Below, one piece after another: positions 6,091 to 33,115 of a stretch of DNA of 34,976 bases (positions are counted from its first letter, which is position 1; each line of letters begins with the position of its first letter). Both the position numbers and the translations under genes were made by a program. Below the pieces are notes generated by a model that saw only the letters and a list, made by a program, of their open reading frames with translations, did not search any database and was not told where the DNA came from. Source of the DNA: a virus (lineage: Duplodnaviria > Heunggongvirae > Uroviricota > Caudoviricetes); IMG/VR virus record IMGVR_UViG_2548876698_000017, one strand, 5' to 3'.

Positions 6091-6105
6091 TTACCCATTA
6101 GGTAA
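6091..6105. promoter_or_regulatory. Operator-like palindrome TTACCCATTAGGTAA (perfect TTACC-N5-GGTAA)
   Basis: Between the repressor terminator and the leftward recombination operon, about 80 bp upstream of the first minus-strand ORF (pL-like position). Confidence 0.6.
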
Positions 6106-6747: not shown

Positions 6748-6802
6748 TTTCTGGAAAATCGCCTCATATATGAATCAGTAGATGATTCAATTTAAAGCAA
6801 TA

Positions 6803-6817
6803 TTACCCAACAGGTAA
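6803..6817. promoter_or_regulatory. Operator-like palindrome TTACCCAACAGGTAA (perfect)
   Basis: First of three sites in the 154-bp repressor/cro intergenic region. Confidence 0.65.
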
Positions 6818-6850: not shown

Positions 6851-6865
6851 TTACCTTATGGGTGA
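6851..6865. promoter_or_regulatory. Operator-like site TTACCTTATGGGTGA (one mismatch in right half)
   Basis: Third site, about 40 bp upstream of the cro-like start; overlaps a candidate -35/-10 (TTGATT ... GAATAT). Confidence 0.55.
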
Positions 6866-6901
6866 ATATTTATTATCTGAAATAAATATCAGGCAATAGC
6901 T

Positions 6902-7132
6902 ATGAGCGATAACGGACATTTCGATTTCAAAAAGCACTGGCTTGCACTTACTCCGGATGAGCGTGAAGCCTTCGCACAGGAAGCCGGAACAACGAGTCAC
7001 TATATCCAGACTCACTTAACAGGTAAGCGCAAAATGCCAGGTAAGGTATTGATGAATGGGCTTTTTAAAGCCTGTAAAACAAGACAATGGCTGCGCTCAA
7101 AAGCAGAACTGGCATACTTCTTCTACTCATGA
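6902..7132 (+). CDS. Cro/YdaS-like small HTH regulator
   Basis: 76-aa ORF divergent from the repressor; HTH-like EAFAQEAGTTSHYIQTHLTGKR; followed by an intrinsic terminator at 7155-7178. Confidence 0.5.
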   Translation: MSDNGHFDFKKHWLALTPDEREAFAQEAGTTSHYIQTHLTGKRKMPGKVLMNGLFKACKTRQWLRSKAELAYFFYS

Positions 7133-7282: not shown

Positions 7283-7483
7283 ATGGAAATCATTACACGT
7301 ATTGATGCCGCAAAGCGCGGACTTAAACGCTACTACACCGGAAAACCATGTAAGCATGGACATGACAGTGAACGCTGGGTTTACAACGGACACTGTGTTG
7401 AGTGCACCATGGAATCAAACCGTCGCATCAGGGCAGAGATTAAGCAGATCATGATTAATTCCTCCCCACAACACTCAAGCTGA
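7283..7483 (+). CDS. Small Cys/His-rich (zinc-binding) hypothetical protein
   Basis: Internal ATG at 7283 (MEIITRIDAAKRGLKRYYTGKPCKHGH...NGHCVECT) of listed ORF 7220..7483; C-x-x-x-H ... C-x-x-C motif. Confidence 0.4.
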   Translation: MEIITRIDAAKRGLKRYYTGKPCKHGHDSERWVYNGHCVECTMESNRRIRAEIKQIMINSSPQHSS

Positions 7484-7498
7484 TAGCGGAGATTAATC

Positions 7499-8314
7499 AT
7501 GAGCAGACATGCAACAGATTGGGCCTGGGAGACAGATCCAGGTAGCTCATCATTAAAGCTCATACTGCTCTCGATGGCTGACAGAGCCGATGAATATAAC
7601 CTCTGCTACCCCAGCATAGAACGCCTCGTTAAAGACACTTGCCTGAATAAAAAAACCGTGCAGGCCGGGCTTATATCGCTCATGAAAATGGGGCTTATTT
7701 CAGATACCGGAGAGAGAAAGGGAGCGACGAAAAGAGTGCGGGTTTTCTCTCTTAATATAACCAAAAACGGGAACATTAAAGGCAACCGGGAAGGGGGTAA
7801 TGAACCCGAAAACGGTAATGTTACCGAAAACGGGAATATACCCAAAAACGGGATGTTGAATGATCCCAAAAACGGGATGTTGAATGATCCCAAAAACGGG
7901 ATCCAGAACCAGTCATATAACCAGTCATTTAACCAAGAGAGGGAGAGCAGGACAAAAAGCGGGGATTCTGTGCCTCATGACCCCGGCGCAAACAACGCCG
8001 TGATGAATAACTTTGTTCCTCCTGGTGGGCCAGGGCAATTAGGCAAATTTGTCATGCATGAACAATGGCAACCATCAGATGACTTTCTTCGGAAAAGCTC
8101 ATTGCAGGGGATCTACCTGGACAGTCTGCCAACGGCACAGGAACTTGCAGAGTTCAGAATTTACTGGATGGCTGAGGGTAAGGCATACCATCAGGCGCAG
8201 TGGGAGCAGAAGCTGGCAAGGCGGCTGCAGATTAGCAGACAGAAGCAATCAACATTACCTGATAACAACGTTCCGCACTGGAACAGCCCTGAAGCATGGG
8301 AGGATTTCTTGTGA
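7499..8314 (+). CDS. Replication initiator (lambda O-like role) with N-terminal winged-helix domain; origin iterons inside the gene
   Basis: 271-aa ORF; N-terminal LKLILLSMADRADEYNLCYPSIERLVKDTCLNKKTVQAGLISLMKMGLIS resembles replication-initiator HTH domains. Central KNG-repeat peptide is encoded by six DNA iterons. Stop overlaps the next gene start. Confidence 0.7.
   Translation: MSRHATDWAWETDPGSSSLKLILLSMADRADEYNLCYPSIERLVKDTCLNKKTVQAGLISLMKMGLISDTGERKGATKRVRVFSLNITKNGNIKGNREGGNEPENGNVTENGNIPKNGMLNDPKNGMLNDPKNGIQNQSYNQSFNQERESRTKSGDSVPHDPGANNAVMNNFVPPGGPGQLGKFVMHEQWQPSDDFLRKSSLQGIYLDSLPTAQELAEFRIYWMAEGKAYHQAQWEQKLARRLQISRQKQSTLPDNNVPHWNSPEAWEDFL
7761..7910 (+). repeat. Six iterons, core CC(A/G)AAAACGG(G/T)A, inside the O-like gene (candidate replication origin)
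   Basis: Copies start at 7761, 7806, 7824, 7841, 7865, 7889; the last three are 24-bp units, two of them identical (CCCAAAAACGGGATGTTGAATGAT). Followed by the direct repeat CCAGTCAT(A/T)TAACC. Confidence 0.6.
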
Positions 8315-9096
8315 ACAACGTTTTTACCGCAATACAAAACCGTGACGGAGAAGCTCTTTCTCGCATGTCAGGTTATGAGCATCAGTACGTCAACAATGAC
8401 AACGTAGTGAACATGTCAGCAGAGAGGCTTGTTGATGCCCTTTTCAAACAGTTGAAACAACTGTTTCCGGCGGCAGTGGTAACCAACCTGAAGACGCCAG
8501 AGCAGGAAGTTGCTGCAAAACAGCAGTGGATTGCTGCGTTTGCCGAAGGGGGGATCCGAACCCGTGAACAGGTTTCTGCTGGTATGCGCCACGCCCGCGC
8601 CAGTGATTCTCCGTTCTGGCCGTCGCCAGGGCAATTCATCAAGTGGTGCAAAGACAGCAAGATGGTTCTTGGCGTCACCATTGACGATGTGATGACGGAG
8701 TTTCACCGGTACAGCAAGGAAAAAAGTTTATATCCTGGTGGTCCCGAAAGATTCCCGTGGCGGCATCCGGTTATGTACTGGGTCGTATGTGATACCCGCC
8801 GTGCAATGTATCAGCGCCAGCTTAGCGAGATAGAGGTTGAGAAACACGCGCGCAGGCTGCTCGATGATTGGGCGAAAAAGGTGGCTTCCGGACAGCAGAT
8901 ACCCGATCCGGTGATCAGCATACAGGCAAAGCCAGAACCCATGAGTACGCCTCCGGACACAGGGAGAGACGTTTACCATCCACCAGGGCGAAGTTTCGGG
9001 TGCATGCCTAACGCCGCCACCCTTGGGGGAATAACACCGGCGCAGTGGCTGATGGAGGAATACAGGCGAGGAAAGGCGGAAGGATTTATCAAGTAA
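8311..9096 (+). CDS. Lambda P-like replication protein (helicase loader)
   Basis: Pattern match to lambda P as I recall it: FPAAVV...QQWIAAFAEGGIRTREQVSAGMRHARA...PFWPSPGQFIKWC. I prefer GTG at 8311 (GGGAGGA RBS 6 nt upstream, GTGA overlap with O stop) over the track's ATG at 8296. Confidence 0.8.
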   Translation: MNNVFTAIQNRDGEALSRMSGYEHQYVNNDNVVNMSAERLVDALFKQLKQLFPAAVVTNLKTPEQEVAAKQQWIAAFAEGGIRTREQVSAGMRHARASDSPFWPSPGQFIKWCKDSKMVLGVTIDDVMTEFHRYSKEKSLYPGGPERFPWRHPVMYWVVCDTRRAMYQRQLSEIEVEKHARRLLDDWAKKVASGQQIPDPVISIQAKPEPMSTPPDTGRDVYHPPGRSFGCMPNAATLGGITPAQWLMEEYRRGKAEGFIK

Positions 9097-9133
9097 TACC
9101 AGCGCGATAGCGCATTTTTTTACGTTTCGATAA

Positions 9134-9148
9134 TTACCTGTTAGGTAA
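9134..9148. promoter_or_regulatory. Operator-like palindrome TTACCTGTTAGGTAA (perfect)
   Basis: Intergenic region after the P-like gene, upstream of the DUF1064 gene. Confidence 0.55.
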
Positions 9149-9195
9149 TAAAATATTCTAAAATCTATTGATTTCGTGTCTTACGTGGTTTTTAA

Positions 9196-9210
9196 TTACC
9201 TCAGGGGTAA
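9196..9210. promoter_or_regulatory. Operator-like palindrome TTACCTCAGGGGTAA (perfect)
   Basis: 62 bp from the previous site and 4 bp before the DUF1064 start codon, overlapping its RBS region. Confidence 0.55.
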
Positions 9211-13678: not shown

Positions 13679-13723
13679 CATGGTACTATTACCACAACGG
13701 TAACTATTACCACGGTGGTTATG

Positions 13724-16449: not shown

Positions 16450-16526
16450 TGGCGTGGCATGCAGGATTCGAACCTGCGACCAACCGCTTAGAAGGCGGTT
16501 GCTCTGTCCAACTGAGCTAATGCCAC
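16450..16526 (-). tRNA. tRNA-Arg (anticodon UCU, reads AGA)
   Basis: Minus-strand 77 nt: GTGGCATTAGCTCAGTTGGACAGAGCAACCGCCTTCTAAGCGGTTGGTCGCAGGTTCGAATCCTGCATGCCACGCCA. Folds as a cloverleaf with 7-bp acceptor stem, GGTTCGAATCC T-arm, anticodon loop CTTCTAA and encoded 3' CCA. Confidence 0.9.
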
Positions 16527-16848: not shown

Positions 16849-16863
16849 TTACCTGAAAGGTAA
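16849..16863. promoter_or_regulatory. Operator-like palindrome TTACCTGAAAGGTAA (perfect)
   Basis: Noncoding region between the tRNA and the 6.7-like/portal genes, about 90 bp upstream of the first structural ORF. Confidence 0.5.
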
Positions 16864-30457: not shown

Positions 30458-32932
30458 ATGAGACAGGAATGTATACAAGCGGTCCAGCAGGCGGCGCAGC
30501 GCACGTTAACGGCGCGAGAAATACAGAACATTGAAGACCGCATTTATCGAAATATGCGCTCCATTGCTCGTGATGACCCGATGTCGTGGCGACAACTTTC
30601 CGAATCAGAACGGTTGTATCGTGCAGCACAATTGGCATCTGAAGAATTACAGCGAGAAGCGGCATTAAAGAAACGTCGTGTGGCCCTCACTATAGCCGCA
30701 CGTCAGAGATTGGATAAATTTATCAATAGCTATCAAGGGGCTGATGGGAAACTTGGCGCTCTTAACCGTACTATTGCTTTTAATGCAGACGGTAAATCGA
30801 ATTTCCTCTCTGTTGAATCCAGAACAAAAGCCACTCGTGATTATGCATTGAGTCAATTGCAGGAGGCATTTGAAGCAGTTGATCCTCGCTTTTTTGGCCT
30901 GTTTGAAGATGAAGCGGGCGTGCGTGACCTGGTATATGAAATGCGAGGGCAAAATACTGGCAATGCTAAAGCAAGAAAAGGTGCTAAGGCGTGGAGAGAA
31001 GTGACAGATCTACTGCGCCGCCGGTTTAATGATGCTGGTGGGGACATTGGCTATCTCGAAAACTGGGGGATCCCTCAACATCATTCTATGGAAAAGGTTG
31101 GGGCGGTATCAAAAGATAAATGGGTTAGCGATGTTATAGGTAAGCTGGATCGCAAATATTATACCCGAGCCGATGGACAACTGATGAACGATGCCGAGTT
31201 GTCTGCATTTCTTGGAGAGGCTTATAACACGATCGCTACTGGTGGGCTGAATAAGCTTACTGATACCGGAATGCGAATTTCCGGCGTACGTGCTAACCGT
31301 GGTAATGCATCACGACAGATACATTTCAAAGATGCAGATTCCTATCTGCAATATCAGCAACTTTATGGCGATCGCTCTCTATGGGAAATCATGGTCGGTC
31401 ACCTGGAAGGTATCAGTAAAGATATTGCGCTGGTGGAAACATATGGCCCAAACCCCGATCATGTTTTCCGCTCTCTTCTTGATCAGGTTAAGGCAGAAAC
31501 GGCAACAGCTAACCCGAGTAAAACCGGTAGCGTCGAGCGTCTGGCGAACAAAACAGAGAACTTGTACAACTTTATTTCCGGAAAAACACAGCCTGTAGCG
31601 AATCCGCACATCGCGCGATGGTCTGACAATATCCGCAACTGGCTGGTTGCCAGCAGACTCGGATCCGCGTTGCTGTCATCGTTCTCTGATCTTGGAACCA
31701 TGTATCTGTCTGCGAAGGTTACCAACCTTCCAATGAACCAGTTATTTCGCAACCAGCTTGAAGCTATGGACCCAACGAACCGTACTGAGCTTGCGCGGGC
31801 GCGCCGCGCTGGCCTGGCGATGGAATCTCTACTTGGCAGCGTTAACCGCTGGGCGATGGATAATATGGGGCCGTCTGTGTCTCGTTGGGCGGCAACGGCG
31901 GTAATGCGTGCCAGTGGGCTTACAGCATGGTCAGGTGCGCACAAGCGCGCCTATGGCGTAACCATGATGGGAAGCCTGGGAGAAGTAGTGTCACGGACAC
32001 CAGACCTTCGTAGCCTCGATGACTCTGATTTTCGTATCCTGAAAAGTAAAGGGATTACTGACACAGACTGGAGCGTATGGAAGCTGGCGCAACAGGAGGA
32101 CTGGGGGAACGGTAATAATACGATGCTGACACCGGAAAGCATTATGCGTATCCCTGATTCAGCAGTTAAACATCTTGGTGAGCCTGAACGCGTGAAATTT
32201 GAGGCAATGCGTAAACTGCTCGGTGCCGTAACTGAAGAAGTTGATATGGCTGTTATTACACCGGGAGCACGTGAGCAACTGATAACCGGTTCTGGTATTC
32301 AGCGTGGAACATGGAAAGGTGAATTAACGAGAAGTGTTTTCCTGTTTAAATCGTTCCCTATCTCGGTTGTTATGCGTCACTGGTCACGCGCTATGGGTAT
32401 GCCGTCTGCTGGTGGGCGTGCGGCATATATTGCGACGTTTATTGCCAGTACGACCATTCTTGGCGCTTTGTCGCAGCAACTTAACGACCTTGCGTCTGGT
32501 CGTAATCCTCGAGAGATGACAGGAGAAGATGCCGCAAAATTCTGGCTTGGTGCTCTACTGAAAGGTGGTGGTCTTGGCCTTTACGGTGACTTTTTATTGT
32601 CAGATCACACTAGGTACGGAAGCGGCGCGCTGGCGTCGATGCTTGGCCCGGTAGCTGGTCTGGTTGATGACGTAGTGAAGATTGCTCAGGGCATACCGTT
32701 AAATGCTGTGGAAGGGAAGAGTGAGCAGACTGGTGGTGATCTGGTGAAGCTGGGGAAAGGTTTGATGCCTGGTGCGAATCTCTGGTACTTGAAGGCGGCT
32801 CTCGATCACATGATCTTTAACCAGATGCAGGAGTATTTTTCACCAGGCTATTTGCGTAAAATGGAGCAACGTTCGAAGAAAGAGTTTAACCAGACATACT
32901 GGTGGCGACCTCAGGATGTCACTCCGCAATAA
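30458..32932 (+). CDS. Internal virion/ejection protein (large)
   Basis: 824-aa ORF; last of three consecutive large ORFs before the tailspike; assignment by synteny. Confidence 0.5.
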   Translation: MRQECIQAVQQAAQRTLTAREIQNIEDRIYRNMRSIARDDPMSWRQLSESERLYRAAQLASEELQREAALKKRRVALTIAARQRLDKFINSYQGADGKLGALNRTIAFNADGKSNFLSVESRTKATRDYALSQLQEAFEAVDPRFFGLFEDEAGVRDLVYEMRGQNTGNAKARKGAKAWREVTDLLRRRFNDAGGDIGYLENWGIPQHHSMEKVGAVSKDKWVSDVIGKLDRKYYTRADGQLMNDAELSAFLGEAYNTIATGGLNKLTDTGMRISGVRANRGNASRQIHFKDADSYLQYQQLYGDRSLWEIMVGHLEGISKDIALVETYGPNPDHVFRSLLDQVKAETATANPSKTGSVERLANKTENLYNFISGKTQPVANPHIARWSDNIRNWLVASRLGSALLSSFSDLGTMYLSAKVTNLPMNQLFRNQLEAMDPTNRTELARARRAGLAMESLLGSVNRWAMDNMGPSVSRWAATAVMRASGLTAWSGAHKRAYGVTMMGSLGEVVSRTPDLRSLDDSDFRILKSKGITDTDWSVWKLAQQEDWGNGNNTMLTPESIMRIPDSAVKHLGEPERVKFEAMRKLLGAVTEEVDMAVITPGAREQLITGSGIQRGTWKGELTRSVFLFKSFPISVVMRHWSRAMGMPSAGGRAAYIATFIASTTILGALSQQLNDLASGRNPREMTGEDAAKFWLGALLKGGGLGLYGDFLLSDHTRYGSGALASMLGPVAGLVDDVVKIAQGIPLNAVEGKSEQTGGDLVKLGKGLMPGANLWYLKAALDHMIFNQMQEYFSPGYLRKMEQRSKKEFNQTYWWRPQDVTPQ

Positions 32933-32941
32933 GGAAGTGTT

Positions 32942-33115
32942 GTGTTTTTAATTATTTTGAGTGTGATAATTTCTGGTGGATTGTTATTTATTGACCGCTA
33001 CAAATATTTTCTTAACCCTCAGACTCAAGCTATTTGCTGGTTCATCTTTGTTGTGCAGGGAGTAGTTCTTGTTGCAAGCCTTATTGAGGGGAGGCCTCTT
33101 ATTTTTACTGGGTAA
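32942..33115 (+). CDS. Possible 57-aa hydrophobic ORF, not in the supplied ORF track
   Basis: GTG at 32942 preceded by AAGGAAG; predicted product VFLIILSVIISGGLLFIDRYKYFLNPQTQAICWFIFVVQGVVLVASLIEG... has two hydrophobic segments. Short and GTG-initiated, so uncertain. Confidence 0.25.
   Translation: MFLIILSVIISGGLLFIDRYKYFLNPQTQAICWFIFVVQGVVLVASLIEGRPLIFTG

Follow-up and report, generated by a model that had tools for sequence, protein, structure and literature searches.

A candidate replication origin of the lambda type inside the initiator gene of a phiV10-like Escherichia coli prophage

Does a cluster of short direct repeats inside a phage replication gene serve as the origin of replication, or does it simply encode a repetitive peptide? 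The question is raised by IMG/VR virus record IMGVR_UViG_2548876698_000017, a 34,976-bp stretch of Caudoviricetes DNA (hereafter, the window, always meaning the whole stretch), which is a phiV10-like (Uetakevirus) E. coli prophage. A sequence-only reading of this DNA had pointed to an origin-like array of direct repeats (iterons) within a replication gene that it called lambda O-like, and an origin inside the initiator gene is textbook knowledge for lambdoid phages. Based on sequence comparisons, we consider it likely that positions 7753-7965, in the linker-coding part of the initiator gene, are the replication origin of this phage, with the sequence of the linker peptide set by the DNA element and not the other way round. 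New here are a probable origin for the phiV10 group, which has no annotation in the records examined, the attribution of this origin to another, very large family of initiators with a near-invariant core across distant hosts, a conserved second element, and the fusion to a DnaT-type domain.

Iterons, second element and the initiator protein

The window was searched for CCRAAAACGGKA with at most one mismatch. Exactly six copies were found, all on the plus strand and all within 7761-7901 (Table 1), and the rest of the window had none at this threshold. Dinucleotide-preserving shuffles had a mean of 0.49 copies and none of 100 reached six; the six in-frame direct repeats reported earlier are thus well above chance. 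The iterons are spaced 45, 18, 18, 24 and 24 bp from start to start, and a decayed copy lies at about 7779-7796, within the 45-bp gap. Tandem Repeats Finder detected an 18-bp period at 7796-7851 and a 24-bp period (2.6 copies, 100% identity) at 7841-7902, the last three 24-bp units being 100% identical. All six are translated in frame as xCC RAA AAC GGK, i.e., (T/P)(K/E)NG, the KNG-repeat peptide of the sequence-only reading. The cores encode aa 88-135, between an HTH_36 domain (aa 18-67) and a DnaT-type C-terminal domain (CTD, aa 184-252), and this peptide is a tolerant interdomain linker that is probably disordered.

The 24-bp units have the form ATCCC-AAAAAC-GGGAT, with inverted arms around a central A-tract. 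Four to seven of 11 positions pair as a dyad in each window iteron (2.75 expected) and four to eight across nine clades of homologues described below, with near-perfect dyads in some relatives (GTTCCGAAAACGGAAC, GTCCCAAATTTGGGAC and GTCCCGAAATCGGGAC). This partial symmetry would fit binding by dimers. Because each iteron is partly dyad-symmetric, a palindrome, GGTAATGTTACC (7814-7825), also forms between two of them; it had been placed inside one iteron, but it straddles iteron 2, whose right end reads ..CGGTAA, and iteron 3, whose left end reads TTACCG.., with TG between. Minus-strand terminator-like hairpins at 7849-7892 were rejected as a by-product of neighboring dyad-symmetric iterons. 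An idealized iteron, ACCGAAAACGGT (window 7806-7835), equals the papillomavirus E2 binding site (ACCG-N4-CGGT), which is a coincidence of two dimeric origin-binding proteins with short arms around an A-tract.

Three GATC (Dam) sites fall within a 41-bp part of the array (7862-7865, 7886-7889 and 7899-7902), one per 24-bp unit. They are present in the units of Edwardsiella phage GF-2 and absent from those of Vibrio phage Her. The cluster was therefore rejected as a Dam/SeqA control element of the family, though a SeqA/Dam role in the enterobacterial members is possible.

Directly after the last iteron follows the second short direct repeat of the sequence-only reading, which we found as AACCAGTCATAT, AACCAGTCATTT and AACCAAG at 7907-7937. 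Its unit, AACCAGTCATWT, is present in 2.4 copies (Tandem Repeats Finder, 12-bp period, 7907-7935), and phiV10 has one additional 12-mer. The equivalent in Vibrio phage Her, CAGAACCAGTCATTAGAACCAGTCATAGAACCAAG, shares 79% of the aligned positions (34 of 43), and a 1-nt indel between the two shifts the frame, so that NQSYNQSFNQ is encoded in one phage and NQSLEPVIEP in the other, whereas the DNA encoding the N-domain is just 59% identical between these phages. GGAACAG(T) repeats are found at the same place in Burkholderia phage Bcep176 and the EBPR virus. These alignments indicate that the second element is conserved as DNA across the frame change. To the right of the array, 7901-7940 is the least stable duplex (62% AT, z 1.73). 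The plus strand is 68% purine over 7903-7965, at 52% AT, compared with 69% purine and 73% AT in the AT-rich region of lambda, and the AT skew is 0.36-0.49 over 7700-7999. The second element is a candidate for unwinding or helicase loading, and this is the weakest part of the proposed anatomy.

The initiator matched Pfam HTH_36 (PF13730; E 1.8e-10, 40.9 bits against a cut-off of 25) and Pfam DnaT (PF17948; E 1.2e-15, 57.5 bits against a cut-off of 25) at the two domains named above. It also matched PHROG 1032 'replication initiation protein' (E 1e-108), and its phiV10 orthologue carries the annotation 'replication initiation protein'. An AF2 model of residues 1-100 from a 10-sequence alignment showed a winged helix (H-H-H-H plus a beta-hairpin wing; N-domain pLDDT 82), with pLDDT below 50 for the first repeat-encoded residues (90-100) at the end of the modelled fragment; the full-length protein gave no usable single-sequence model (pLDDT 38). 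Foldseek with the N-domain model returned generic winged-helix DNA-binding folds only. At the other end of the protein, phmmer against PDB retrieved the E. coli DnaT CTD entries 9zbt, 6aep, 4ou6 and 2ru8 (E 1e-19 to 1e-21). The NCBIfam DnaT equivalog NF002770 was matched with 85 bits against a cut-off of 201, and only at model positions 86-169 (the CTD); the initiator was thus rejected as a DnaT orthologue.

The initiator had no match to Phage_rep_O (PF04492) at E ≤ 0.01, while lambda O (6e-36) and P22 gp18 (7e-38) did match this model. With no such match, an hhalign probability of 3.8% for its N-domain profile against lambda O, and a DnaT-like C-domain, the initiator was placed outside the lambda O family. 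The 'O-like' label given to the gene thus holds only by analogy.

Conservation of the iteron core and its linkage to the N-domain

N-domain homologues were collected by tblastn of phage and plasmid records and their DNA was then read, with the core defined as CCRAAAACGG with at most one mismatch. The core was detected on the coding strand only, directly 3' of the N-domain (about aa 88-155), in nine clades: window/phiV10, phage GF-2, phage Her, Acinetobacter phage AP22 and relatives, the E. coli PPompW prophage, Bcep176 and 23 Burkholderia relatives, the EBPR podovirus, an Arsenophonus phage-plasmid and a Pantoea prophage. The hosts thus range from AT-rich Acinetobacter to GC-rich Burkholderia. 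The core is read as (T/P/S)(K/E)NG in frame 1, as (Q/R)KR in frame 2 and as PKT in frame 0, often in several frames within a single gene. The order of frames is 1, 2, 0, 1, 0 in the EBPR podovirus, 0, 2, 1 at 17-bp spacing in Burkholderia prophages, 0 then 1 in Her, and 2 then 1 in PPompW, GF-2, Pantoea and Arsenophonus; the annotated iterons of lambda are in frames 0, 2, 2 and 1. In frame 1, the residue before K/E changes (T, P, S) so that CC stays at codon positions 2-3.

A phmmer search with the N-domain returned 3,704 clusters at E ≤ 1e-3. A peptide census was performed for 125 listed representatives (50%-identity clusters, each of at least 180 aa), taking aa 85-190 as the linker. The frame 1 signature [STPA][KE]NG occurred 265 times in the linker and once elsewhere, the frame 2 signature [QR]KR 85 and 11 times, and the frame 0 signature PKT[GAVDE] 37 times and never, for a pooled 387 in the linker vs 12 elsewhere. 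At least two frames are used in 64 of the representatives. Signatures of the second element in two frames showed the same bias (119 and 39 in the linker vs 17 and 0 elsewhere), and in 74 of 87 proteins they come after the final iteron signature. As the same core is kept across three reading frames, a peptide-level explanation is very unlikely, and the comparison indicates that selection maintains the repeats at the DNA level rather than for their peptide. Very probably, the array is at the least a cis-acting DNA element that belongs with the N-domain.

Variation among close relatives was counted in 44 distinct sequences with the same architecture and >93% ungapped identity. Only 1 of 60 core positions was polymorphic, compared with 12 of 84 spacer positions (Fisher p=0.008), and the sole polymorphic core site is in iteron 1. 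Copy number was variable, with 5-9 cores, in steps of 18 or 24 nt, in 80 IMG/VR relatives whose N-domains are 99-100% identical. Phase-variable frameshifting was rejected, as every copy-number change is a multiple of 3 nt.

The iteron motif co-occurs with the N-domain and with nothing else among the homologues compared. All 125 representatives match HTH_36, while their C-terminal domains vary (DnaT-CTD in 17, Phg_2220_C in 2, most without a Pfam match). The partner genes also vary, being lambda-P in the window, GF-2, Pantoea and Klebsiella, a DnaB-like helicase in AP22 and a primase-helicase in Arsenophonus, and the upstream genes are unrelated between clades (methyltransferase, Ant, CII-like, YdaT and others). 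In the epsilon15-type phage SPN1S, the same DnaT-CTD is joined to a different N-domain, and there are no such repeats. By this co-occurrence, the partner of the array is the N-domain, and neither the remainder of the protein nor the neighboring genes.

The clearest case is the initiator of phage GF-2 (locus L002, 1501-2343), a natural chimera in which the HTH_36 N-domain and iterons are joined to the C-terminal half of lambda O. Its last 137 aa are 62% identical to lambda O from nt 39172 (L239, lambda 38686-39585), just past the lambda iterons (39034-39118) and AT-rich region. Upstream of the junction are the HTH_36 N-domain and CCCAAAA(C/T)(G/T)GGG iterons. Judged by these alignments, GF-2 has exchanged 'lambda O N-domain plus ori-lambda' for 'HTH_36 N-domain plus array' as one unit, which is the outcome expected if the array is the cognate origin of its N-domain.

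The most distant N-domain examined, in a Tardiphaga (Alphaproteobacteria) plasmid homologue (L241, 1501-2181; 34% identity), lacks the canonical core; the iteron place is occupied by CCGCAAAAAGCGG and CCGCAAGCTTTGCGG, followed by GAACCTATA repeats. This is a hint that iteron and recognition domain vary together.

Many database open reading frames (ORFs) of the HTH_36 initiator family end at 90-140 aa, inside the repeat zone (P0005, P0030, P0151-P0153 and others), and a frameshift in some of them turns the iteron peptide from KNG into PKT. In Acinetobacter sp. ESL0695, the copy (L242, 1501-2300) is a pseudogene with stops. It seems that the repeats cause breaks in assembly or gene calling, or that the decay is real. 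An E. coli record of 8,461 bp (L238, NZ_CP148379.1), deposited as a circular plasmid, is a prophage segment with genes for a repressor, a cro-like protein, YdaT, the PPompW-type initiator (same N-domain family), replication protein P, hokD, rem and defense-like functions, and with no other rep gene among those listed. If it is a natural lambda-dv-like mini-replicon, it would be the one hint at initiator-dependent replication; with 'single cell' as the stated source, it may instead be an artefact of assembly.

A scan of contigs for AAAACGG-N(11-17)-AAAACGG-N(11-17)-AAAACGG was discarded because the pattern is too unspecific: none of the 120 listed loci had the N-domain, these being unrelated tandem repeats, and only three resembled distant initiator linkers. 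Scans for related loci with single proteins found close relatives only.

Table 1 Features of the initiator gene region in the window (all on the plus strand)
Feature	Coordinates	Strand	Description
Replication initiator gene	7499-8314	+	271 aa: HTH_36 winged-helix N-domain, repeat-encoded linker, DnaT-type C-terminal domain
N-terminal winged-helix domain coding region	7499-7759	+	aa 1-87; presumed iteron-binding domain
Iteron 1	7761-7772	+	CCAAAAACGGGA; 45 bp to iteron 2
Iteron 2	7806-7817	+	CCGAAAACGGTA
Iteron 3	7824-7835	+	CCGAAAACGGGA
Iteron 4	7842-7853	+	CCAAAAACGGGA
Iteron 5	7866-7877	+	CCAAAAACGGGA; inside 24-bp unit GATCCCAAAAACGGGATGTTGAAT, dyad ATCCC-N6-GGGAT
Iteron 6	7890-7901	+	CCAAAAACGGGA; closest iteron to the second element
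Second conserved element	7905-7937	+	CAG + AACCAGTCATAT + AACCAGTCATTT + AACCAAG; directly after the last iteron
Purine-rich tract	7937-7965	+	GAGAGGGAGAGCAGGACAAAAAGCGGGGA; prolongs the strand asymmetry right of the repeats
DnaT-CTD homologue coding region	8039-8293	+	aa 181-265; phmmer vs PDB
Helicase loader gene, lambda-P family	8296-9096	+	overlaps the end of the initiator gene; Pfam Phage_lambda_P, E 1.7e-56

Known origins, a possible mechanism and the alternatives

We compared the array with known origins. Ori-lambda, in gene O (also in the Stx phages P27 and 933W), is likewise intragenic and at the boundary of the N- and C-domains, with several direct iterons 18-24 bp apart. In both, the iterons are imperfect inverted repeats around an A-tract (ATCCCTCAAAACGAGGGA in lambda, GATCCCAAAAACGGGATG in the window), are read in differing frames, and vary in number between relatives with matching protein insertions. 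For example, Stx phages have six iterons vs four in lambda, with 13 extra residues in O (PMC7466680). Both also have a purine-rich, strand-asymmetric tract to the right and a lambda-P-family loader gene immediately downstream. The window differs from lambda in its N-domain (HTH_36, not Phage_rep_O), its C-domain (DnaT-like, not that of lambda O), the gap from CCC to GGG (6 bp in the core vs 9 bp), the flanking DNA (52-62% vs 73% AT) and the 12-bp repeat AACCAGTCATWT after the iterons.

The origin of P22, in gene 18 (rep_origin 32840-32984; L240, 841-985), is also an intragenic iteron origin. Immediately after its last iteron is a box, AATCAGTCAAAC, that resembles AACCAGTCAT of the window and AATCAGTCAT of GF-2 and is followed by an A/purine-rich tract; from this resemblance, a post-iteron box may be shared across initiator families. 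In contrast to the window, gp18 belongs to Phage_rep_O (E 7e-38), the iterons are of the GGTAAAAC or TTTACC type, and the partner is a DnaB-type helicase (gene 12) rather than a P-type loader. The 'replication initiation O-like' protein of GF-2 shares with the window the N-domain family (58% identity), the lambda-P partner, iterons at the same place with a core differing by one to two bases (CCCAAAATTGGG) and a QNQS-type second element, and has the lambda O C-domain (62% identity) in place of the DnaT-CTD.

Outside phages, the C-terminal 85 residues of the initiator are homologous (E ~1e-20) to the CTD of E. coli DnaT (primosomal protein I of the PriA-PriB-DnaT restart preprimosome). The N-terminal oligomerisation domain of DnaT is missing from the initiator (85 vs 201 bits), and its localisation would be sequence-specific, via the winged helix and iterons, not via PriA/PriB at forks. 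The iteron origins of plasmids (Rep_3/RepA/pi, and RepA_N of pSK41) likewise have direct repeats and a winged-helix initiator, whose binding is predicted in our case, and the weak winged-helix matches from Foldseek include complexes of the RepA N-terminal domain with iterons (4pql, 5kbj). However, plasmid iterons lie outside the rep gene, and the initiator has no Rep_3 or RepA_N match and one winged helix rather than a WH1-WH2 pair.

The conservation of the DNA in three frames, the linkage to the N-domain and the GF-2 chimera all favor the lambda-like, origin-type array that the sequence-only reading had proposed. If 7753-7965 is the origin, dimers of the N-domain would bind the iterons and form an O-some-like, bent nucleoprotein complex, and the duplex would open at the two copies of AACCAGTCATWT, AACCAAG and the purine-rich tract. 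The array would concentrate the DnaT-type domains locally, and these could engage the exposed single strand and/or the P-type loader carrying host DnaB, with the helicase loaded as a result. Transcription of the early-right operon would cross the site, as at ori-lambda. The DnaT CTD itself forms a helical filament on single-stranded DNA and marks the DnaB loading site in the preprimosome (PMC13377028; PMC4132743).

More tentatively, and with considerable doubt, the N-domain, iterons and 12-mer could be a portable origin-plus-recognition cassette placed on interchangeable helicase-recruitment domains. The phiV10 version would then be a split-DnaA-like initiator with DnaT-CTDs polymerising at the AACCAGTCAT repeats: the winged helices may anchor on the iterons, and the tethered DnaT-CTDs may mark the loading site for P-DnaB. 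Such a cassette, with its near-invariant 10-bp core, may be present in thousands of lineages in Gamma- and Betaproteobacteria and, in a variant form, in Alphaproteobacteria. If so, the strong conservation of the core could allow prophages that share a cell (for example, phiV10-type and PPompW-type in E. coli) to fire or titrate one another's origins.

Several points weigh against an origin at 7753-7965. In the searchable literature we found no binding, unwinding or ori-cloning data for any HTH_36 family member, and hhalign could not demonstrate sequence homology between the N-domain and that of lambda O. The flanks of the iterons are only mildly unstable (62-70% AT, z 1.7-2.6), well below the 73% AT of lambda, and the least stable, most AT-rich DNA nearby is intergenic, at 9130-9169 (z 4.1, 82% AT), 6766-6805 and 6851-6890. 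Most family members lack the DnaT-type domain, whose role and contact with the P-like protein are purely inferred. Concerted evolution of the tandem repeats could account for part of the low polymorphism seen in the cores. Literature on phiV10 and epsilon15 origins, HTH_36 iterons, the core, the 12-mer and the signature peptides was searched, and no account of this element came up; the core matched papillomavirus E2 sites only, by coincidence, and the 'iterons' of pABTJ2 belong to a Rep_3 plasmid and are irrelevant.

The instability profile also bears on an alternative that we regard as unlikely, in which the iterons are initiator sites for autoregulation, copy-number control (handcuffing) or a transcription roadblock, and replication starts elsewhere, e.g., at 9100-9210. 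The strongest AT-rich, low-stability DNA near the replication genes is indeed in that intergenic region (9130-9169), the DNA adjoining the iterons is just 52-62% AT, and the iterons of plasmids serve control as well as initiation. However, 9100-9210 carries TTACC-N5-GGTAA palindromes, and as these recur at promoter-like intergenic sites, the region looks like an operator set and not an origin. Moreover, the array and second element accompany the N-domain into genomes with unrelated downstream regions, which 9100-9210 does not, and the array of GF-2 is exactly at the place of ori-lambda.

It is much less probable that the array is bound by another protein, such as a host factor or the product of the small ORF at 7283-7483 or 6902-7132. 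These upstream ORFs are DNA-binding candidates (PHROG 35 for 6902-7132), but clades that have the N-domain and iterons in common carry entirely different genes upstream, and the N-domain alone co-occurs with the motif. Least credible of all is a protein feature with no cis role, i.e., a slippage-expanded, low-complexity KNG/ENG linker whose DNA likeness reflects recent duplication and descent: the last three 24-bp units are identical, copy number differs between near-identical relatives and residues 90-100 have low model confidence, like a flexible linker, but the 10-bp core is kept while the peptide changes with the frame (PKNG, QKR, PKT), even within single genes, T/P/S before K/E keeps CC at codon positions 2-3, the orientation is invariant, and the cores are less polymorphic than the spacers.

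An origin at 7753-7965 would give phiV10/Uetakevirus-type prophages a concrete candidate of about 200 bp, and it predicts the origin position and iteron consensus for a large uncharacterised HTH_36 initiator family (3,704 clusters), which current pipelines label only as 'helix-turn-helix domain-containing' or 'DnaT-like'. It would also provide a clean natural case in which selection on DNA overrides the peptide sequence within a gene, and would link a replication-restart domain (the DnaT-CTD) to origin-specific initiation. Possible uses are phage-derived mini-replicons, the prediction of replication cross-talk or incompatibility between prophages, and the avoidance of mis-assembly and false frameshift calls at the repeats.

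Gene neighborhood and other elements of the window

The initiator gene is 96-99% identical to that of phiV10 and relatives and 100% identical to that of a chromosomal prophage of E. coli E2865, and was found in 424 of 5,426 complete E. coli genomes. The loader gene downstream matched PHROG 109 'P-like helicase loader' (E 2.6e-91). Upstream of the initiator gene are a divergent repressor with two helix-turn-helix (HTH) motifs, a cro/cII-like ORF (6902-7132; PHROG 35 'transcriptional repressor'), a terminator-like hairpin and a small ORF. The gene layout is that of a lambda-like early-right operon. The small ORF just upstream (7283-7483, plus strand; 66 aa from M22) belongs to PHROG 1081 (function unknown) and has a Cys/His pattern that is Zn-ribbon-like; it shows weak similarity to endonuclease VII-type families and is conserved in phiV10 and epsilon15.

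The 15-bp palindrome TTACC-N5-GGTAA is present in six copies in the window (0.06 expected by chance), at 6091-6105, 6803-6817, 9134-9148, 9196-9210, 13689-13703 and 16849-16863, with near-variants around 6826, 6852 and 7190. Most copies sit between genes, in AT-rich DNA that resembles promoters, the divergent repressor/cro region among them. They are probably operators for the phage repressor (6163-6747), which has two HTH motifs, or for another regulator.

A tRNA-Arg gene (anticodon TCT) was detected by ARAGORN and Rfam (73 bits) at 16450-16526 on the minus strand, between the terminase and the portal-side genes. The annotations of O157 typing phages 9 and 10 include this gene, and that of the phiV10 RefSeq record does not. 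Near the left end of the window, 1981-2070 on the minus strand matched the Rfam family sRNA-Xcc1 (RF02221) with 62.9 bits, compared with a gathering score of 53.

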